Shown piece by piece: positions 2,736 to 43,133 of a stretch of DNA of 45,233 bases (its first letter is position 1; each line of letters starts with the position of its first letter). The position numbers and the translations under genes are program-made. The stretch lies in sequence record OR594180. The stretch is one strand, 5' to 3'. The notes beneath the pieces are model-generated. The model had not been told where the DNA came from. It did not search any database and saw only the letters and a program-made list of their open reading frames with translations. The DNA is from Escherichia phage vB_EcoM_SHAK7693.

Positions 2736-2768
2736 AAAAAGGCCTCTTTCGAGGCCTTAGTTTTATTT
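2736..2768. terminator. bidirectional rho-independent terminator
   Basis: Stem AAGGCCTC-TTTC-GAGGCCTT flanked by A-run upstream and T-run downstream. Confidence 0.55.
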
Positions 2769-3284
2769 AAATCGCGCGGGCATTAACACCATAAAGGCCG
2801 TGTTTGAAAATTGTATTTTGCATCCTTTGGTTTGGTCCTGGAAATCGAAACGAGCAATTTCATTTTTGTATGCCTTAGAAATCTTGTACGCGTCTGCCAA
2901 ATAGCGCAGAGTGAACCCTATACTGTCGACAACACCCGGTGTGATGTGCGCCACGCGTCTCCAGTCAGGAAAGTTTCCTTCTACAACATCTACCGGAAGT
3001 GTACATATAAGCACACGATTATCGTCATAGAAAGATACACTGCCGTTGTCGTGGTTTACCTCTGCGTAGTTAAATTTAGAAGGCTCTCTCCCTTTGATGT
3101 CTATGAGAGTCCCTTTCTCAACGTTGGTCTTCACATTGTCGCAGAACAATCTATGACCGTCCGTAGACACTATCAATCCTTCAGGGTCTATGTAAAAAGC
3201 GTTCAAATAGTAGCGAACATCATTTTTAGCTCTGCATATTTTTGCCCCTACATACGCAGGGAAAGTAATTACTGTAGTAACCAT
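2763..3284 (-). CDS. DnaN-like protein (beta sliding clamp domain II plus C-terminal half of domain III)
   Basis: Motifs DVRYYLN, STDGHRL, GNFPDWRRV, SIGF..YL.D and C-terminal LMPARF match E. coli DnaN residues ~140-366 from memory; own promoter and terminator. Confidence 0.65.
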   Translation of the reverse strand: MVTTVITFPAYVGAKICRAKNDVRYYLNAFYIDPEGLIVSTDGHRLFCDNVKTNVEKGTLIDIKGREPSKFNYAEVNHDNGSVSFYDDNRVLICTLPVDVVEGNFPDWRRVAHITPGVVDSIGFTLRYLADAYKISKAYKNEIARFDFQDQTKGCKIQFSNTAFMVLMPARFK

Positions 3285-3311
3285 TTTGCGTCTCCTGTTT
3301 AAGTTAACTGA

Positions 3312-3340
3312 ATAGTACCCTATTATATTGGTGTCTGCAA
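3312..3340 (-). promoter_or_regulatory. class-A promoter (TTGCAG-N17-TACTATTCA) for DnaN-like gene
   Basis: Conserved element shared with five other loci; correct spacing to ATG at 3284. Confidence 0.5.
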
Positions 3341-4890: not shown

Positions 4891-4920
4891 AAAAGGCCCC
4901 GTAAGGGGCCTTAGTTTTAG
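4891..4920. terminator. bidirectional rho-independent terminator
   Basis: AAAAGGCCCC-GTAA-GGGGCCTT then T-rich run. Confidence 0.55.
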
Positions 4921-5108
4921 TTAAGGTACGCGGCTCGCCCCGCCATATAACCAGCAAGATACATTTTAAACCACTCGTTACATTCTCCATTCTCGTAATA
5001 CGCCCCAATCTTCCACATTTCTTTTGCTTCGCGGTCAAAGCGGAAACGACCTTTACAGTTCTTCTCGAATGATTCCATGATTTCGTACCATTCTTTGGAA
5101 TATAACAT
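4917..5108 (-). CDS. hypothetical small protein (63 aa), antisense moron
   Basis: RBS AGGAGG before ATG 5108; own class-A promoter; shares terminator at 4891-4920. Confidence 0.5.
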   Translation of the reverse strand: MLYSKEWYEIMESFEKNCKGRFRFDREAKEMWKIGAYYENGECNEWFKMYLAGYMAGRAAYLN

Positions 5109-5134
5109 TTTTACCTCCTGTTTAATTTAACTGA

Positions 5135-5164
5135 ATAGTACCCTATTATGTTGGTGTCTGTAAA
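5135..5164 (-). promoter_or_regulatory. class-A promoter (TTTACA-N18-TACTATTCA)
   Basis: Near-identical to element at 3312-3340. Confidence 0.5.
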
Positions 5165-5215: not shown

Positions 5216-5258
5216 AACTATTCGAATAGTTGACTTTTCACTGAAAATGTGCTAAGCT
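5216..5258 (+). promoter_or_regulatory. sigma70-like promoter (TTGACT-N17-TAAGCT) overlapped by perfect 16-bp palindrome AACTATTCGAATAGTT
   Basis: Palindrome 5216-5231 is a dyad of the ACTATTC half-site found in class-A/B promoters. Confidence 0.45.
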
Positions 5259-5869: not shown

Positions 5870-5978
5870 CGACGCTGACGAGGATTTAGCTATCGACGTT
5901 CAGAACACCGAATGCGTACGGCAACTGAGGCTGAAAGTGTTCACGTTGCAGGATTACGTGAGGAATATTCTGGAATAG
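5715..5978 (+). CDS. o-spanin (Rz1-like lipoprotein)
   Basis: GTG start with RBS GAGGTG; signal peptide with lipobox LASC; Pro-rich PTPLPTPIPSP; overlaps Rz-like gene. Confidence 0.65.
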   Translation: MKSLSTLKRLAAACALSTMLASCSSPTPLPTPIPSPDTTMMQPPCKLVPPSSDADEDLAIDVQNTECVRQLRLKVFTLQDYVRNILE

Positions 5979-6060
5979 TTGCCTTGCATGTTGGAATAAT
6001 TTATTCTTGACATGTAAATCCGGGAGGCCCGGATTCCAACGTCCAGGGGACATACTGACT

Positions 6061-8185: not shown

Positions 8186-8557
8186 ATGGTTGATGTAATT
8201 AAACGTCGTATTACCGGTGTTTCTGATGAAGACTCTGACGGTCAGGTTGAAATCGACATGGCAAACATCTCTCCAGCGTCTTTTTCTACCGCACCGAGCG
8301 CCACCACAGCAGTTACAGCCGGGCAGACTATGACACTGACCGTAGTTGTTACTGGTGGTCTGGAGCCGTATTCCTACCAGTGGTACAAGAACAACAACGC
8401 TATCGCCGGGGCAAACGCGGCTTCCTATGCGAAGGCGTCCACCACTACCGCCGATTCAGGTACGTATAAAGTGGTTGTTCACGACGTGTATGGTAATATT
8501 ATCTCCAGCAGCACTAAAGTAACCGTGTCTCAATACAATGGCCCTTCGGGGCCGTAA
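8186..8557 (+). CDS. Ig-like domain protein (putative capsid decoration)
   Basis: YSYQWYKNN...SGTYKVVVHD Ig-like signature. Confidence 0.5.
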   Translation: MVDVIKRRITGVSDEDSDGQVEIDMANISPASFSTAPSATTAVTAGQTMTLTVVVTGGLEPYSYQWYKNNNAIAGANAASYAKASTTTADSGTYKVVVHDVYGNIISSSTKVTVSQYNGPSGP

Positions 8558-9882: not shown

Positions 9883-9976
9883 TGAATAAGTTCACATGTG
9901 GTGTAGTTTTTGGTTTTCTTACCGCGGTAGTCTTGCACAGTTACAGTGTTCTTTTGACGCTGCAAGAGGTGCTAAA

Positions 9977-12314: not shown

Positions 12315-12340
12315 AAGGCCCCTTTCGGGGCCTTTTCTTA
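12315..12340. terminator. bidirectional rho-independent terminator
   Basis: GGCCCC-TTTC-GGGGCC then TTTTCTTA. Confidence 0.55.
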
Positions 12341-12499
12341 CTCACTTTTGAATGGCATTTCATGGAAGTTAGTTAACTGACCTCGGTTACTACGTTCTGT
12401 CATTTCTTTCGAGGCCTCTTCCTTACTACCAACAGCATAAATATCAACCCACTCATCCCATTCTTCGTCATATACGCGGATTACGTATATTGTTTTCAT
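12338..12499 (-). CDS. hypothetical small protein (53 aa)
   Basis: Hand-translated; last gene of antisense island. Confidence 0.3.
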   Translation of the reverse strand: MKTIYVIRVYDEEWDEWVDIYAVGSKEEASKEMTERSNRGQLTNFHEMPFKSE

Positions 12500-12506
12500 A
12501 ATATTT

Positions 12507-12737
12507 TCACTCATCAATGTTACTCCGGTACTCCCGTAACTTCTCCAGACTTTCTATTGCTTCTGCTAAGTCGGTTCCTGTGTCTTTGTGTCCGCGAAGG
12601 CCCATACACAACAGCTTCTTCAATGCGTGCTGTAGCGCCGGGTCCCGGATATCGAAGGCGCGGAGCACATCATAAACATCTACTGTCATAGTGCTGCCGT
12701 GGGTATTTGTCATTGTGCGGTTGTATTTATTTGTCAC
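12507..12737 (-). CDS. hypothetical protein (76 aa)
   Basis: ORF in antisense island. Confidence 0.45.
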   Translation of the reverse strand: MTNKYNRTMTNTHGSTMTVDVYDVLRAFDIRDPALQHALKKLLCMGLRGHKDTGTDLAEAIESLEKLREYRSNIDE

Positions 12738-12927
12738 TGTTAACTCTCTTAAATCGGGCTATGCCTGACTCGTTAATGCTGCCTATTTCAAAGAAGCTGC
12801 GATATTTAGGCGAATACATTCTTACGTCGCCGTTCTCTAGGGTGACCCCTTCATATACAGCGCCTACTTCGAATCCATTTTTCTCCGCGTACGGACTCAC
12901 ATCGGTGCATTCATACATATCTTTCAT
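12727..12927 (-). CDS. hypothetical protein (66 aa)
   Basis: ORF in antisense island, overlaps neighbours by a few codons. Confidence 0.45.
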   Translation of the reverse strand: MKDMYECTDVSPYAEKNGFEVGAVYEGVTLENGDVRMYSPKYRSFFEIGSINESGIARFKRVNSDK

Positions 12928-14054
12928 CCCAGCATCTCCGGTGAAATAGTTAAACGTGCGACCTCGCCATATTCGGCACTATAGGTAATTACATTTGCGC
13001 TACGGCCTGACATCCATCCACCGCGCGAGGCGTAGGCGTCTTTAGCCGCCAGGGTGCGGTGTTGCTCAACAATCATGTTACGGCTTTCCACAATCTTCTG
13101 ATGGTGGAGGTGGCCTACGTGGGCGTAGCTGTAAACGCTTTCGCCAAATGCTTTGCGGAACTTGGCAATCATAACCGGTTCGATAGCGTCGAATCGTGCC
13201 TTATGCCCGTGGTGAAAGAACAGCGTCGTTTTGCCGTGTTGCACCATCTTGTAAACATCTGGCGACGTATCGACGAACACACGAGGCTCATTGTCGTACA
13301 GCGTACTAAACATCTCAGCTAACCAAATCATTCCGCTTTCGTCGTGGTTTCCTTGCACGATAAGCAAGCGAACATTTTTATGCTTAACCAGCGCCATATC
13401 GACAACACGGCGGACCATACGAATCATGTAGCGGACAAGTTTCTGATAGCGAGTGTCCGCATCAAGGGCGTGACCGCTTGCAGGCGTAACGGCAACCAGA
13501 CTGTCGAAGTGCGCGAAGTCGCCCAGCAGGTTAATAACTCCAGTTCCTGCATCCGGCGCTTTCTGGAACGCCGCATCGAACCAGCGAGAAAACAGGTCTT
13601 CCGCAATCTTCATATCCCAGTCGTCGCCACTCTCGTCGGCCCAGGCCAGCATACCAAGATGGAAATCAGATACAGTGTAAAGATTGAGTAGTTTATCGTC
13701 ACGTTTGGTGCGAACGGCTTTAACTGGTACAACGGGAGTAATCTCCGACTTCATGCCTTCGATTACGGCTTTCATCAACTCGACCTGACGTTCAGCGTCA
13801 GTGTCTGTCTTAACCCATTGCAACTTAGTGTTGCCGAACTCGTCCACAAGCGACGACGTTCCTTTAATCTTGTAGCCGTCCGGGACAAGATGGCTAACGT
13901 CACGACCGTGACCTACGCCTTTCTTCGCCAGCTTCGCTTTACGGATACGAATAACGCGGTCTGAGATGCCGTATTTACGGGCGATGTCTACATTCTTCAT
14001 CCCGGCGTTCAATTCTTCCTGTAACTGTTCGTCGGTTATTTTCTTCTGGGCCAT
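12924..14054 (-). CDS. calcineurin-like metallophosphoesterase with N-terminal HTH
   Basis: Motifs DFH, GDFAH, GNHD, HHGH, GHLHH; N-terminal ~50 aa HTH-like (DIARKYGISDRVIRIR). Confidence 0.7.
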   Translation of the reverse strand: MAQKKITDEQLQEELNAGMKNVDIARKYGISDRVIRIRKAKLAKKGVGHGRDVSHLVPDGYKIKGTSSLVDEFGNTKLQWVKTDTDAERQVELMKAVIEGMKSEITPVVPVKAVRTKRDDKLLNLYTVSDFHLGMLAWADESGDDWDMKIAEDLFSRWFDAAFQKAPDAGTGVINLLGDFAHFDSLVAVTPASGHALDADTRYQKLVRYMIRMVRRVVDMALVKHKNVRLLIVQGNHDESGMIWLAEMFSTLYDNEPRVFVDTSPDVYKMVQHGKTTLFFHHGHKARFDAIEPVMIAKFRKAFGESVYSYAHVGHLHHQKIVESRNMIVEQHRTLAAKDAYASRGGWMSGRSANVITYSAEYGEVARLTISPEMLG

Positions 14055-14092
14055 GCTTACTTCCTCGTGTTTAGGATTTGTCCTATACTAGC

Positions 14093-14284
14093 TCACTTCT
14101 CTTTGACATTCGAGTTACAAGCCCAGATTAAAATAAATACCCACGGCAACAGAATCCAGCCAAGAAACAGGTTCGCCATGAATATCGCCAACTTCGCTTT
14201 ATGGTTGCGCATATGGGCTACTAAAAACGGGATAAAATAAACTAAAACGATAATGATTAAGAAGAACATAGTAATACCTGTCAT
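14093..14284 (-). CDS. small membrane protein (63 aa, two predicted TM helices)
   Basis: Internal ATG with RBS AGGAG; hydrophobic segments; first gene after class-A promoter. Confidence 0.5.
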   Translation of the reverse strand: MTGITMFFLIIIVLVYFIPFLVAHMRNHKAKLAIFMANLFLGWILLPWVFILIWACNSNVKEK

Positions 14285-14325
14285 GGTGTAGCTCCTGTTT
14301 GAGTTAACATTGTTGGTGTAAGTGA

Positions 14326-14354
14326 ATAGTATCCTATTATGTTGGGGTGCGCAA
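14326..14354 (-). promoter_or_regulatory. class-A promoter (TTGCGC-N17-TACTATTCA) for antisense island
   Basis: Conserved element upstream of island. Confidence 0.5.
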
Positions 14355-25389: not shown

Positions 25390-25415
25390 ACGGCCCCTAA
25401 CGGGGCCTTTTTCTT
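25390..25415. terminator. rho-independent terminator
   Basis: GGCCCC-TAAC-GGGGCC then TTTTTCTT. Confidence 0.55.
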
Positions 25416-28149: not shown

Positions 28150-28337
28150 TTCGCCACCAGAACTAACTCTTTACGCCCGAACGCCGTAACGTTACCGGTT
28201 ACGTCTTCGATAACCAGTTTACCGTTCGACTCGACGAACACCGTATCAACGGCAACAGGACGACGGGTCTTAACGTTGAAAATCATGTCGCCCGGTACGA
28301 TGTCACGTGCTGGTTTGCGGTCATATTCGTGTTTCAT
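28146..28337 (-). CDS. hypothetical protein (63 aa)
   Basis: RBS AAGGA; first gene after class-B promoter. Confidence 0.45.
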   Translation of the reverse strand: MKHEYDRKPARDIVPGDMIFNVKTRRPVAVDTVFVESNGKLVIEDVTGNVTAFGRKELVLVAK

Positions 28338-28367: not shown

Positions 28368-28652
28368 CTAACTATAATAGTTCGCTATTAGGTCGTCAAC
28401 CTGTTTAAACGAACCAACGACAAAAACATTCGCACCACGTTTACGCATCCGCTCATGCTCCCGTAACTGGTGCGGGTCAGGCTTCGTGTTCTCGTCTTTC
28501 TTCACCTCGACGAACCAGATGACGCCGCCGGGGAGAATTATCAGCAGGTCAGGAGCGCCCACTCTATTTTCGTACGACAATTTGCGTACAAGGCCCCCCA
28601 GGGCCTCGAATCGGTCTTTTGCGTATTTCTGAATCTTGCCTTCCGGGGTCAT
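28368..28652 (-). CDS. VRR-NUC domain nuclease
   Basis: GAPDLLIILPGG...FVEVK PD-(D/E)XK-like core; ATGA-coupled start. Confidence 0.65.
   Translation of the reverse strand: MTPEGKIQKYAKDRFEALGGLVRKLSYENRVGAPDLLIILPGGVIWFVEVKKDENTKPDPHQLREHERMRKRGANVFVVGSFKQVDDLIANYYS
28371..28399 (-). promoter_or_regulatory. class-B promoter (TTGACG-N17-TATAGT)
   Basis: Near-consensus sigma70 hexamers; spacer contains GCGAACTAT element shared with 32100 and 34976. Confidence 0.45.
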
Positions 28653-28801
28653 GACCGCAGAACCCAAGTTATAAACGCCCCGCCGAGAACGGCAACGCCA
28701 ACAAACTTAAAGAACAGGCCATAACAGAACATCGCGGCTATCCCCGCACCGAGTAACAGTGCGAGCATGGTTACTATCGTCCAAAATACAAACATTGTCA
28801 T
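28649..28801 (-). CDS. small membrane protein (50 aa)
   Basis: Hand-translated; hydrophobic; RBS GGAGG; ATGA-coupled. Confidence 0.35.
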   Translation of the reverse strand: MTMFVFWTIVTMLALLLGAGIAAMFCYGLFFKFVGVAVLGGAFITWVLRS

Positions 28802-31371: not shown

Positions 31372-31396
31372 AGTAAAAAGGCCCAATGAAGGGCCT
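31372..31396 (-). terminator. rho-independent terminator/attenuator between SSB-like and polymerase genes
   Basis: GGCCC-loop-GGGCC followed by T-run on minus strand. Confidence 0.4.
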
Positions 31397-31416
31397 TAGT
31401 TAAATTGATTCAGATA

Positions 31417-32046
31417 TTAACGGCGGCGACGTTCGCGGCGCGGTGCTTCATCTTCTTCGTCGTCTTCCAGGTCGTCAGTGCTCGCTACTACACTGGAGCC
31501 TCCGAAGCGTTTACCTTCACCCATATACTTGATGCCGAGGATGGTAGCGCACAGGTTTTTCCAATCTTTGTGCCACCATAATTCTACAGATACGTTTGCG
31601 ACACATCCGCTATATACCTGCTCGCCTTCGATTTCTTTCCCGTCGATGTTGAAATCAGGCTCGGTTTGTTTTTCACCTTTAGCCGATGTCATAATCACCG
31701 GTTGACGGTTGTTAGTGGCCCGGAAATACAGACCTTCTTCAAAATCCTCAATAGGATTGTCTCGCATTGCCAGGTCACGTACACAGCACTTGTCCGCGTG
31801 GTGGTCTACACCGTAGTTGGCCTTCATCCATTTCTCGGCAGCGGCGGCACCGATTGCATCTGTTACAACTTCCAGCGCGGTGTCATAAAGCGCGTCGATT
31901 TGAGGGTGGTCAGGCTGCATAAGAACCGTAACCTGGTATTTACCCTTAATCAGTTTACCGGTTTTCTTGTCCTCAGAGTCGGCAGCACGTTCGAATACGT
32001 TAACCCATGCAGTGTTTACTTTACGCAGATTCAGTTTAATACCCAT
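31417..32046 (-). CDS. putative ssDNA-binding protein (DUF2815-like)
   Basis: 209 aa with acidic C-terminal stretch DDLEDDEEDE; neighbours DUF2800-like nuclease and polymerase. Confidence 0.45.
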   Translation of the reverse strand: MGIKLNLRKVNTAWVNVFERAADSEDKKTGKLIKGKYQVTVLMQPDHPQIDALYDTALEVVTDAIGAAAAEKWMKANYGVDHHADKCCVRDLAMRDNPIEDFEEGLYFRATNNRQPVIMTSAKGEKQTEPDFNIDGKEIEGEQVYSGCVANVSVELWWHKDWKNLCATILGIKYMGEGKRFGGSSVVASTDDLEDDEEDEAPRRERRRR

Positions 32047-32099
32047 CGTGATTTCTCGCTTTTCAGTTTACTCCGGGAACTGCCCGGCCAGTGATTAGA

Positions 32100-32128
32100 A
32101 CTATAATAGCTAACTATTCAGGTGTCAA
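32100..32128 (-). promoter_or_regulatory. class-B promoter (TTGACA-N17-TATAGT)
   Basis: Consensus -35; spacer TGAATAGTTAGCTAT. Confidence 0.45.
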
Positions 32129-34473: not shown

Positions 34474-34944
34474 TTATTCTTCTTCGAAATACTTGTTCTT
34501 GATTGCCGTCAGGCGTTCCAGATACTCCGCCAGGTCTTCGTCTTTAATCGCGGCAATCTTCATCTTCTTACCGGTGAACTCTTCCAGCAGTTCATCAGAA
34601 TCATCACACGCGGCATCGCTCGGACCTTCGTTAATTGCATCGTCGATAGCCTGAATCTGGTCGCGCAGAGACTGGTAATCGACTTCTTCTTTATCCTCTT
34701 CCGGTTCTGGCGTCGGTTCCTCTACTTTAGCTTTACGCGGCTTGCGTTTCGGCTTCTCTTCTTCTACCGGTTTAGTGTCAACTACGTCTTCACCTTCTAC
34801 CGGGATTTCTTTTGTTGCATCTTTTGCAACAGTAGGCTCGATTGTTGCGGTTTCAGCAACGACAACTTGTTTCGCGCTGTTAGCAGCAATCAGTTCGTGG
34901 GCAACTACGAAACGTTCTAGTAATACTAAGAATTTCTCTAACAT
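34474..34944 (-). CDS. acidic hypothetical protein (156 aa)
   Basis: Glu/Asp/Lys-rich; first gene after class-B promoter at 34976. Confidence 0.45.
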   Translation of the reverse strand: MLEKFLVLLERFVVAHELIAANSAKQVVVAETATIEPTVAKDATKEIPVEGEDVVDTKPVEEEKPKRKPRKAKVEEPTPEPEEDKEEVDYQSLRDQIQAIDDAINEGPSDAACDDSDELLEEFTGKKMKIAAIKDEDLAEYLERLTAIKNKYFEEE

Positions 34945-34975
34945 TTGTTTCTCTCCTCTCGTTTGGTATTGGCTA

Positions 34976-35004
34976 ACTATAATAGCGAACTATTCACATG
35001 TCAA
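34976..35004 (-). promoter_or_regulatory. class-B promoter (TTGACA-N17-TATAGT)
   Basis: Consensus hexamers; divergent from HTH regulator gene. Confidence 0.45.
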
Positions 35005-35009
35005 TGGGC

Positions 35010-35045
35010 TTTTCTAAAATAATTAATATGGTACTATTCACATAT
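35010..35045 (+). promoter_or_regulatory. class-A-like element (TACTATTCA) upstream of HTH regulator gene
   Basis: -10-like TACTAT with TTCA; weak -35. Confidence 0.35.
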
Positions 35046-35068
35046 CAACTGACTAAGGAGTAATTGAC

Positions 35069-35284
35069 ATGCAACCATCTGAACTAGGCATCCGTGTAGA
35101 ACAACGCCGTAAAGAACTCGGCATCTCCCAACGTCGTCTGGCTGTTCTGACCGGCGTTTCCCAGGGCGCGATTAACCAGCTTGCACTCGGTGTAACCCAG
35201 GACGTCCGCCCGGCAACGCTGTTTAAACTGGCGGAAGTGCTGGAAGTAGACGCCAAGTGGCTGGCGTTAGGTGAAGGGGCTTAA
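35069..35284 (+). CDS. XRE-family HTH transcriptional regulator
   Basis: ISQRRLAVLTGVSQGAINQL helix-turn-helix; RBS AAGGAG. Confidence 0.7.
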   Translation: MQPSELGIRVEQRRKELGISQRRLAVLTGVSQGAINQLALGVTQDVRPATLFKLAEVLEVDAKWLALGEGA

Positions 35285-35300
35285 GCCCCTTTCTTTTTAT
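35268..35300 (+). terminator. rho-independent terminator
   Basis: GGGGCTTAAGCCCC palindrome then TTTCTTTTTATT. Confidence 0.5.
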
Positions 35301-37932: not shown

Positions 37933-38166
37933 TTATTCCAGGTCTTCTAAAGTGGCGGCCATTCCGCGAACTTCAGCAACAGCGCTATATTTCCCACCAA
38001 CATTTTTCACGACACCGGATTTAACCAGTACCCTCAACGACCCTTCAATAATGGCTGAACTATAGTACTTAAAATAACTACGGCGCAAGTCCATAACGCT
38101 GCACGACCCTTTTTTGCGGGTTAACGAAACGACCGCCGTAAATACGCGTGACTGGAACTCGGTCAT
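37933..38166 (-). CDS. hypothetical protein (77 aa)
   Basis: ORF between regulator and primase/helicase. Confidence 0.45.
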   Translation of the reverse strand: MTEFQSRVFTAVVSLTRKKGSCSVMDLRRSYFKYYSSAIIEGSLRVLVKSGVVKNVGGKYSAVAEVRGMAATLEDLE

Positions 38167-38333
38167 TTAACGTTCTCCTTAATCCACGCTTCCACTTTCT
38201 CTGGGTCAAACGTACCCGGCTGCCGGCGGCCCATAATGCGGATACAACAATCCGGGAACTTCCCACTCTTTAACCAGTTATTAAGCGTGCGGCGAGTAAC
38301 CCCAATACGCTCAGCTACCTCATTCTGTGTCAT
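38163..38333 (-). CDS. AlpA-like HTH DNA-binding protein
   Basis: MTQNEVAERIGVTRRTLNNW helix-turn-helix; RBS GAGGG. Confidence 0.55.
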   Translation of the reverse strand: MTQNEVAERIGVTRRTLNNWLKSGKFPDCCIRIMGRRQPGTFDPEKVEAWIKENVK

Positions 38334-38365
38334 TCTCAAACCCTCATTATCAGTCAACGAAACCA

Positions 38366-38394
38366 AGTATACATTGCGAATAATGGGAAATCAA
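38366..38394 (-). promoter_or_regulatory. sigma70-like promoter (TTGATT-N17-TATACT) for minus-strand early operon
   Basis: Hexamers and spacing read from sequence. Confidence 0.4.
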
Positions 38395-38764
38395 ACATAA
38401 TCGCACCTATTGACATTATGGAAATCTTCGTTTAAGGTGCTTCTATATCTTAGTTACTTTTATTCCTGTTCACCTTGTAAGAATGTTTAACCCGTGCGTC
38501 AAGCAAAGGGTTAAACACAGGCTTACTGAACATTAGAATTATAGTAACTTTCCTTCCTAAGTATCTCCAGTTGCCTTGGGCAAGCTCTATTCTCATCGGC
38601 AGCATATATCTTAAGTATCTGATTTTCTTAAAGTGCCGTAGATTCGCAACCGTAAAAATGTAACGATTATTGGGCAGGCCTTAAGCCTGCCCTTTAGTTA
38701 CCAAGTAATAAGAATAAAGGCACAACCTTCCCCGAAGAATCACAACGGCAACGTAACTATTCTC

Positions 38765-38793
38765 TTGCACACCCCAATATAATAGGATACTAT
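38765..38793 (+). promoter_or_regulatory. class-A promoter (TTGCAC-N17-TACTATTCA)
   Basis: Conserved element; extra AACTATTC half-site about 20 bp upstream. Confidence 0.5.
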
Positions 38794-38827
38794 TCACTTA
38801 TCGGAACGAGACAGAGGAGTTGGGGTT

Positions 38828-39807: not shown

Positions 39808-39836
39808 TTGCACACTGGGATAGAATAGGCTACTAT
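39808..39836 (+). promoter_or_regulatory. class-A promoter (TTGCAC-N17-TACTATTCA)
   Basis: Conserved element. Confidence 0.5.
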
Positions 39837-39969
39837 TCATTTACACGAACGAGGGGGGAGACGGAATATGATTCCTGGGCATTAGGCGAACTGGTAGATG
39901 CTTACGAAATAATGGGTAGCACTTCGGTGCGCGACGGTGACACTAAAGCGATAAAAATGGGGGTTGAGG

Positions 39970-43052: not shown

Positions 43053-43072
43053 CTATTTTCTGTAATGACTAG

Positions 43073-43101
43073 TTGACTATTATCCTGGACCCTATTATAT
43101 T
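43073..43101 (+). promoter_or_regulatory. sigma70-like promoter (TTGACT-N17-TATATT)
   Basis: Near-consensus hexamers with 17-bp spacer. Confidence 0.5.
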
Positions 43102-43133
43102 TACTTCATCGACAACGAGAACGGAGTAGAGAA

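Follow-up and report, generated by a model that had tools for sequence, protein, structure and literature searches.

Probable operators of a Cro-like repressor within the promoter cores of a Kagunavirus-like Escherichia phage

Background

The operators of phages 434 and P22 are 14 bp long and have a 5-4-5 layout, and Gln28 of the 434 protein contacts adenine. Proteins of the 434, P22 and lambda type repress from positions inside the polymerase footprint. In some temperate phages, one repressor attends many copies of a short site throughout the genome, which lie mostly in promoters or intergenic regions, as is the case for the P1 C1 operators, the conserved inverted repeats of phiC31 and the stoperators of L5. 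The P1 and L5 sites are asymmetric, and the L5 stoperators block elongation within operons. Here we focus on a stretch of 45,233 nucleotides from Escherichia phage vB_EcoM_SHAK7693 (sequence record OR594180; in the following, the window), in which a 14-bp inverted repeat, AATAG-N4-CTATT, recurs inside promoter cores, and on a helix-turn-helix (HTH) protein of 71 amino acids (aa), encoded in the same window, which most likely docks on this element as a Cro-like repressor.

The window represents a Kagunavirus-like virulent siphophage of E. coli, subfamily Guernseyvirinae, and the 9-kb stretch around the three promoters described first below has 491 matching phage records. The best match is Escherichia phage Ivi (91% identity), from whose annotation the gene map was transferred; K1G/K1H/K1ind-type phages and records under the name Kagunavirus come next. 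On the plus strand are small early-type genes, the genes for lysis and the structural module, and the DNA-metabolism genes form a leftward arm from 38333 to 25417. Papers on the genus describe Kagunavirus phages as lytic, and the gene-map comparison revealed no CI-length repressor, integrase or lysogeny module in the window or in the annotated relative. Among siphophages, those of Kagunavirus and Jerseyvirus belong to the most frequently isolated ones and to those most frequently suggested for therapy and biocontrol of E. coli and Salmonella, and their transcriptional control is essentially unstudied.

A 14-bp dyad in promoter cores

Three minus-strand sites, termed class B, look like genuine sigma70 promoters, each at the head of a leftward DNA-metabolism unit, and each holds a copy of the inverted repeat (dyad) in its spacer. 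Dyads were scored with a position weight matrix (PWM).

28371-28399, minus strand: predicted promoter PB1, TTGACG-N17-TATAGT
32100-32128, minus strand: predicted promoter PB2, -35 box TTGACA at 32128-32123, 17-nt spacer, -10 box TATAGT at 32105-32100
34976-35004, minus strand: predicted promoter PB3, TTGACA-N17-TATAGT
28376-28389, no strand assigned: dyad in the PB1 spacer, AATAGCGAACTATT on the minus strand, PWM score 22.7
32105-32118, no strand assigned: dyad in the PB2 spacer, AATAGTTAGCTATT on the minus strand, PWM score 26.2, centred at about -18.5
34981-34994, no strand assigned: O1, the dyad in the PB3 spacer, AATAGTTCGCTATT on the minus strand, PWM score 25.1

Read in the direction of transcription, the three sites are TTGACGACCTAATAGCGAACTATTATAGT (28399 to 28371), TTGACACCTGAATAGTTAGCTATTATAGT (32128 to 32100) and TTGACATGTGAATAGTTCGCTATTATAGT (35004 to 34976). 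They lie exactly where a previous sequence-only reading of this DNA had placed them, and the near-consensus sigma70 hexamers that it had described are borne out by matches of 11/12, 11/12 and 10/12 (11/12 for PB2), which make PB1-PB3 the top three sigma70-type matches within 25.3-45.2 kb. Four matches to TTGAC-N18-TATAGT with at most one mismatch are found, against 0.72 expected, and none of 100 shuffles reached four. The spacers measure 17 nt in the window and 17 or 18 nt among relatives, within the range of 16-18 nt accepted for sigma70, and leaders of 33-53 nt separate the -10 boxes from the ATG codons at 28337, 32046 and 34944. The conserved spacer that had been proposed, TGAATAGTT.GCTAT with GAATAGT, is present in two of the three copies; the third, at 28371-28399, has TAATAGC...ACTATT.

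The unit common to PB1-PB3 is the 14-bp inverted repeat AATAG-N4-CTATT, and not the half-site GAATAGT that had been taken for the shared element. This heptamer occurs 16 times against 4.6 expected, and nine of its occurrences are inside dyad sites. The remaining seven, which include the copy at 38756-38762 that had been noted upstream of 38765, are at chance level (7 against 4.6 expected) and were rejected as extra half-sites. A genome-wide motif scan, the check suggested with the sequence-only reading, finds eight exact copies of the dyad in the window and, with at most one mismatch, 12 matches against 0.98 expected, a number that no shuffle attained; the dyad tops all 5-N-5 palindromes of the genome in frequency. 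Nine sites reach PWM scores of 20-31 and the next two 13.5-13.9, while the maxima of shuffled sequences average 11.3 and peak at 18.6. These nine strong dyads (eight exact, one with a single mismatch) are distributed from 3.3 to 39.8 kb, all inside promoter cores, and the nine promoters that bear them lie 5' of genes with ribosome-binding sites.

Besides the class-B copies, five of the strong dyads belong to a second promoter architecture, class A, in which TTGCAC-N17-TACTAT carries the dyad over the -10 box, centred at about -12.5 (dyads starting at 3311, 5134, 14325, 38781 and 39824).

3312-3340, minus strand: predicted class-A promoter, TTGCAG-N17-TACTAT, dyad 3311-3324 over the -10 box, PWM score 31.3, upstream of the 173-aa beta-clamp-domain gene 2763-3284, which it would drive
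5135-5163, minus strand: predicted class-A promoter, TTACAG-N17-TACTAT, dyad 5134-5147, would drive the 63-aa open reading frame (ORF) 4917-5108
14326-14354, minus strand: predicted class-A promoter, TTGCGC-N17-TACTAT, dyad 14325-14338, would drive a superinfection-immunity-like gene, a DNA-repair exonuclease and three small ORFs (14284 to 12341)
38765-38793, plus strand: predicted class-A promoter, TTGCAC-N17-TACTAT, dyad 38781-38794, PWM score 31.4, would drive small early-type genes from 38828
39808-39836, plus strand: predicted class-A promoter, TTGCAC-N17-TACTAT, dyad 39824-39837, would drive rightward genes from about 39868

The claim that one element is common to both classes therefore stands, as a dyad of protein-binding type. 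In class B it occupies the spacer, and its final T is the first T of TATAGT. Relative to the -10 box, the registers of classes A and B are 6 bp apart, which points to a separate binding protein and argues against direct polymerase contacts. The slightly asymmetric 18-bp element around the dyad (TGAATAGT...CTATTAT) is moreover oriented oppositely in the two classes relative to transcription. The class-A hexamers match sigma70 poorly (about 7/12), and AT-rich tracts upstream of their -35 boxes could act as UP elements. TTGCAC-N17-TACTAT fits all five class-A copies; a TATAAT that overlaps the upstream half of the class-A dyads was considered as the true -10 box and rejected, no -35-like hexamer being present 16-18 nt upstream of it. 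Dyads also lie upstream of predicted transcript starts, and an Rfam scan of the whole window gave zero matches, so the motif is not a known RNA element.

Conservation among related phages

For comparison, 37 Kagunavirus-type loci were retrieved from IMG/VR by searching with the regulator protein, and alignments of 35-39 loci were anchored on flanking sequence and not on the motif. PB1-PB3 are all at syntenic positions in about 37 relatives, with hexamers better conserved than their flanks; PB2 is conserved in 39 loci. Across 39 Kagunavirus loci (729 kb), 177 exact dyads with 26 different central tetramers are found, the information content being 2 bits in the half-sites, 0.15-0.47 bit in the centre and 0.5-0.6 bit in the flanks. 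Only about 6 of 113 orthologous class-B copies have altered half-sites in these flank-anchored alignments, while the centre varies. Class-B variation is confined to the four central bases and to the 3-5 bases between the -35 box and the dyad, and 5' of the PB2 -35 box conservation collapses. The extra base that distinguishes 18-nt from 17-nt spacers is always located between the -35 box and the dyad, and the register of the dyad to the -10 box is thereby kept. Invariant halves around a drifting centre are the footprint expected of a dimer that reads two 5-bp half-sites without central contact.

The comparison was extended to two Salmonella phages of the same subfamily. Jerseyvirus SE2, whose regulator is 48% identical, has seven matches to AATAG-N4-CTATT against 1.2 expected, and its dyads sit in TTGAYA-N17-TATATT promoters in the corresponding syntenic positions. 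Cornellvirus Shemara (regulator 40% identical) has no AATAG-N4-CTATT, but ATTAG-N4-GTATT occurs nine times against 2.0 expected. SE2 and Shemara share a host genus and yet differ in motif, which argues against a host factor as the binder. The Shemara variant (locus L003) is observed in equivalent promoters (6873, 27878, 31402, 35221, 35285, 38487 and 39103), where it lies in the spacer, over the -10 box or over the -35 box.

The putative regulator and its gene

The candidate binding protein is encoded next to PB3 and is transcribed divergently from it.

35069-35284, plus strand: gene for the 71-aa Cro/CI-type HTH protein (Pfam HTH_3), the proposed operator-binding repressor
34993-35020, plus strand: candidate promoter of the regulator gene, TTCACA-N16-TAAAAT, 10/12, back to back with PB3
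35025-35038, no strand assigned: O2, AATATGGTACTATT, one mismatch, PWM score 20.4, nearly invariant in 39 loci
35019-35048, minus strand: degenerate fourth class-B-like copy, TTGATA-N18-AATTAT, with O2 in the register of the PB1-PB3 dyads
35273-35292, plus strand: predicted intrinsic terminator closing the single-gene regulator unit

The protein matches Pfam HTH_3 with an E value of 2e-12 and 47 bits (cut-off 23). Its closest solved relative is phage 434 Cro (full-length match, E 8e-6); the N-terminal domain of the 434 repressor is also matched, and P22 C2 is more distant. A single-sequence structural model has five helices at a mean predicted local distance difference test score (pLDDT) of 85, and its template modelling (TM) scores are 0.77-0.85 to 2cro and 3cro (0.77-0.83 for 2cro). 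Homologues are present in 538 phage records, in which they are annotated variously as repressor, DicA or Cro.

The -35 box of the candidate regulator promoter (TTCACA, 34993-34998) adjoins O1 with two bases overlapping, and O2, 44 bp from O1, covers its predicted start region. The 120-bp region around O1 and O2 is almost invariant among relatives. Apart from this pair, the operators are single and dispersed. Downstream, between 35273 and 35611, the regulator gene meets the end of the first leftward unit in convergent orientation. The terminator hairpin there has its T-run on the plus strand only, so that leftward transcripts from 38394 may run antisense through the regulator gene, with transcriptional interference as a possible consequence.

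Distant repressors with the same recognition helix

In a second search, the aligned regulator proteins of Kagunavirus, Jerseyvirus and Cornellvirus served as query, which retrieved uncharacterised CI-type repressors of unrelated temperate elements (loci L055, L056, L058/L059 and L060) and a short HTH protein (L063). The recognition helix GV(S/T)QG.I.Q is common to the window protein and to all of these. Over the matched part, identity among the distant repressors is only 37-61%, and the C-terminal domains are dissimilar. With one mismatch allowed, the CI-type loci hold 2-5 copies of A[A/T]TAG-N4-CTA[A/T]T against 0.2-0.5 expected, exclusively in a cluster just 5' of the repressor gene, with a spacing of 24-25 bp, and, in four of five loci, in a second pair 0.7-2.4 kb away, an arrangement that resembles the OR/OL layout. 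In L063, one exact copy, where 1.0 is expected, precedes the gene by 29 bp. In the aligned regulators the recognition helix invariably begins with glutamine (Q32 in the window protein), and the operators of the window, the CI loci, D3 and 434 all begin with A.

Clusters of ATTAG-N4-CTAAT are observed at 9909-9959 and 10734-10772 in L055 and at 9931 and 11186-11224 in L058, as well as in L059, L060 and L056, and they constitute a predicted operator code for the whole repressor subfamily.

Earlier descriptions of the motif and expression data

The motif itself is already published. For fBC-Eco01, seven 20-mers found with PHIRE, of consensus tgAATAGTa-ccTATTat-T, were named phage RNA polymerase promoters (PMC9825357); they correspond to class-A sites, one PB1-like site and O2. 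Seven PHIRE matches were likewise reported for Golestan (PMC7203180). Both papers describe the same element and read it as a promoter for a phage RNA polymerase, without class-B sigma70 promoters, dyad symmetry or a link to an HTH protein. One Kagunavirus paper lists a "repressor DicA" gene and yet declares the phage to be free of a repressor.

For Kagunavirus, the one RNA-seq time course is that of vB_Eco_K1B4, sampled from 5 to 120 min at a multiplicity of infection of 100, with a latent period of 30 min (PMC12645636). By gene coordinates, the regulator corresponds to gene 004, classed as "middle", and the Xis-like HTH_17 protein to gene 008, classed as "early"; the primase-helicase is "middle" (PMC12645636). 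These are gene-level counts, and the sampling is too coarse and asynchronous to decide on shut-off.

Proposed mode of action and alternative explanations

We consider it somewhat better than an even chance that the Cro-like 71-aa protein represses transcription from dispersed, promoter-embedded operators and from its own gene. Host sigma70 polymerase would fire the near-consensus class-B promoters and the weaker class-A promoters with their A/T-rich upstream tracts. The 71-aa protein would dock on the operator as a dimer, with one recognition helix per AATAG and the four central base pairs uncontacted, and the bound dimer, inside the polymerase footprint, would block RNA polymerase. As it accumulates, the protein would damp or shut off the early and DNA-metabolism promoters and curb its own synthesis via O1 and O2. 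What we observe is the sites and their statistical excess, their position within promoter cores, a pattern of conservation like that of a footprint, the fold and family to which the protein belongs, and the pairing of helix and dyad in unrelated phages; binding, dimer stoichiometry, repression as opposed to activation, and timing we infer from them. The location of the dyad inside the promoter core points to repression and not to general coordination. Of the earlier proposal, one DNA-binding protein coordinating early, replication and late transcription, the single protein survives as a good explanation, comparative evidence favouring the HTH_3 protein at 35069-35284 of the two HTH proteins, and the coordinating role is not supported.

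Several points weigh against this reading. The literature yielded no experimental work on the regulator, be it on binding or on expression. The poor sigma70 match of class A means that activation, not repression, might be needed there, and a second HTH protein (HTH_17, 38163-38333) and a 77-aa protein are encoded nearby. In K1B4, helicase, methyltransferase, DNA polymerase and one class-A-driven gene are the latest-peaking (PMC12645636). These expression classes are not as a simple early shut-off predicts, which keeps alive a variant with delay or titration or with a dual regulator. A clean covariation between recognition helix and half-site was looked for within Guernseyvirinae and not found: Jerseyvirus keeps the AATAG core though four of seven helix-3 residues differ from the window protein, and the Cornellvirus variant is consistently non-palindromic. 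The link to the protein consequently rests on the more distant CI-type homologues.

Among the alternatives, the nearest retains protein and operator and makes the protein an activator or dual regulator, which would fire the weak class-A promoters or delay class B until titration by the genomes; we regard it as unlikely. It would account for the weak class-A hexamers TTGCAC/TACTAT, for operators whose positions in the two classes differ by roughly half a helical turn, and for the late peaks of PB1- and PB2-unit genes and of one class-A unit in K1B4, a data set of which the sampling is too coarse to rely on. Yet the operators, centred at about -12.5 and -18.5, fall inside the polymerase footprint, class B is near consensus and should need no help, and the tracts 5' of the class-A -35 boxes could supply UP elements. 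Rather unlikely, too, is a real operator with another binder, namely the Xis-like HTH_17 protein, the 77-aa protein (37933-38166) or a host regulator. The first leftward unit does encode two more small proteins, of which one is a clear HTH, the earliest K1B4 class has HTH_17 as its sole annotated gene, and the persistence of the Jerseyvirus core despite a diverged HTH_3 recognition helix fits a different binder. However, this type of dyad tracks HTH_3 proteins of the same recognition helix in unrelated temperate phages and flanks the HTH_3 gene in all three genera, and the promoter of the HTH_17 gene itself has no dyad nearby. A host factor was rejected on account of the differing motifs of the two Salmonella phages SE2 and Shemara, which argue against it.

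Two further explanations dispense with a repressor altogether. That there is no dedicated binder, and that the motif reflects duplicated promoters of common descent under -10-like A/T-rich constraints, seems to us quite improbable. The promoters are plainly paralogous, and the dyad partly overlaps -10 hexamers, namely TACTAT in class A and, in class B, the first T of TATAGT. But neither the AATAG of the class-B spacer nor the upstream half of the class-A dyad is at a position contacted by polymerase, and both are nearly invariant, with drift in the 4 bp that separate the halves; the dyad is moreover found in two registers and both orientations, and the same type recurs in CI loci of unrelated promoter context. 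Hardly credible is the PHIRE-based annotation of the seven fBC-Eco01 20-mers as promoters of a phage-encoded RNA polymerase. The annotation of the closest relative lists no gene for such a polymerase, and the window ORFs of at least 700 aa all map to tail protein, DNA polymerase or primase-helicase. Without such a gene, and with a palindrome that is used in opposite orientations to transcription in classes A and B, the PHIRE reading fails; ordinary sigma70 hexamers also surround the motif.

The repressor reading can be extended to the proposition, which we hold to be unlikely, that one 71-aa Cro-like protein and one 14-bp operator run the whole temporal programme of a strictly virulent phage family. 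The operator would be placed at three registers of host-type promoters (over the -10 box, in the spacer and over the -35 box), and the central tetramers, specific to each class and read indirectly as in 434 and P22, would rank the operators by affinity. As protein level and genome copy number rise, the promoter classes would then be switched in turn, with no sigma factor, antiterminator or CI partner involved.

Further promoters, transcription units and elements

The class-B promoters would serve distinct parts of the leftward arm. PB1 is predicted to drive hyp58, the C5-methyltransferase, the helicase and small ORFs as far as a terminator at 25392-25407; PB2 the SSB (DUF2815) gene 31417-32046, with read-through to hyp63, DNA polymerase and the VRR-NUC nuclease; and PB3 hyp70 (156 aa, 34474-34944), three small ORFs, the PD-(D/E)XK exonuclease and the HNH endonuclease. 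The specificity for replication genes that the sequence-only reading had ascribed to class B is fair for these units and does not extend to the primase-helicase. The first leftward unit (Xis-like HTH_17, 38163-38333; 77-aa protein, 37933-38166; 755-aa primase-helicase; 104-aa protein) has a different, conserved promoter without a dyad, TTGATT-N17-TATACT at 38394-38366, so that some replication genes fall outside class B.

PB1 and its operator lie wholly inside the last 10 codons (VDDLIANYYS*) of the VRR-NUC nuclease ORF 28368-28667, the same bases at 28368-28399 being coding sequence, promoter and operator. Directly 3' of the SSB gene, a terminator-like hairpin (AAGGCCC...GGGCCTT, 31378-31397) is followed by a minus-strand T-run, and an annotated terminator is present at the equivalent place in Shemara; PB2 may hence chiefly serve SSB, the DNA polymerase arising by read-through. 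At the front of the SSB leader (32047-32093, minus strand), near +8 in the predicted PB2 transcript, is a conserved hairpin with the stem CCGGG/CCCGG. Its loop is variable among about 35 loci, and Shemara has a compensatory double change (CCTGG/CCAGG). The hairpin might stabilise the 5' end or act as a translational operator; the folding energy of the leader as a whole is not unusual (z = 0.5).

The two dyads next in score are located over the -35 boxes of candidate promoters that we group as class C.

43068-43101, plus strand: candidate class-C promoter, TTGACT-N17-TATATT, downstream of a terminator, one-mismatch dyad ACTAGTTGACTATT over the -35 box
5225-5258, plus strand: candidate class-C promoter, TTGACT-N17-TAAGCT, one-mismatch dyad AATAGTTGACTTTT over the -35 box, PWM score 13.5

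The first (PWM score 13.9, alone not significant) is invariant in 28 loci and present in SE2, and it lies upstream of small genes, terS and terL, that is, of the packaging and structural block. The second lies upstream of spanin, scaffold and capsid genes and is host promoter HP1 in the fBC-Eco01 listing (PMC9825357). Both class-C dyads have the central tetramer TTGA. The link to late transcription that had been suggested comes down to these two sub-threshold copies, whose scores of 13.5-13.9 are within the shuffled range.

Another element that had been pointed out, the palindrome at 5216-5231, is real. It is a perfect 16-bp palindrome, AACTATTCGAATAGTT, with two half-sites in reverse (tail-to-tail) order, and it directly abuts the weak dyad over the plus-strand -35 box of the TTGACT-N17-TAAGCT promoter, 5' of the spanin genes. 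A further element, GAATAGTTGCCTT, is found at 5973-5985, where the o-spanin ORF ends, 5' of the scaffold gene, and also in the corresponding Shemara intergenic region (about 8300-8330); it may be another class-C-type promoter.

Within the plus-strand structural module, three minus-strand gene islands (2763-3284, 4917-5108 and 12341-14284) each have their own class-A promoter and a bidirectional AAGGCC...GGCCTT terminator (2739-2758, 4893-4912 and 12315-12334), a moron-like arrangement. The leaders at 34945-34975, 38795-38827, 39838-39867 and 43102-43133 contain AACGAG and then a purine-rich ribosome-binding site before the ATG (for example AACGAGAGGAG and AACGAGACAGAGGAG), which may represent a shared context for translation initiation. 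Between the leftward and the rightward early units, which diverge, is a 430-bp gap (38334-38764), which holds a terminator-like hairpin (38672-38692), several weak promoter matches and no homologue of any gene annotated in the closest relative.

Significance

The control circuit thus appears to be real but fairly ordinary in kind, the docking of a Cro-like repressor being its most likely basis. Its reading as a lytic regulator of the Cro type would resolve both the contradiction between a DicA annotation and the stated lack of a repressor and the label of phage polymerase promoter, and a regulon of 9-11 promoters is defined. Three compact, near-consensus promoters that are probably repressible, and a small, putatively orthogonal repressor-operator pair, could help engineering. 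The helix GV(S/T)QG.I.Q with its half-site A(A/T)TAG furthermore adds a data point to the recognition code of the 434 and P22 repressors.

Comparison with known systems

The closest likeness is to 434. Its Cro protein is also 71 aa long, is 36-40% identical in structural alignments and shares the five-helix fold and the conserved glutamine, and the operators in both cases are 14 bp long, have two-fold symmetry, are conserved in the outer 5 bp and variable in the central 4 bp, and overlap promoter cores. In contrast, the half-site is AATAG in the window and ACAA(G/T) in 434. The window phage is strictly virulent, without a partner CI, integrase or OR/OL clusters, and its operators, at least nine, are scattered over the genome, one per promoter.

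The annotated operators of D3 cI (ATGGG-N4-CYCAT) are likewise 14 bp long with 5-4-5 geometry, spaced by 24 bp, and the DNA-binding domain is homologous, but the helix, DQTSISN, and the half-site are different. The CI proteins of D3, P22 and lambdoid phages possess C-terminal dimerisation or S24 peptidase domains and maintain lysogeny from tandem operators restricted to the immunity region, whereas the window protein is a DNA-binding domain alone. A divergent cI, tandem OR/OL and lysogeny functions, which characterise the lambdoid cI-cro switch, are absent from the window.

With P1, phiC31 and L5, finally, the window shares many copies of one operator across the genome in promoter regions. There, the sites serve the maintenance of the prophage, and the repressor proteins are unrelated or distantly related to the window protein; here, the same kind of distribution is found in a phage without a lysogeny module.

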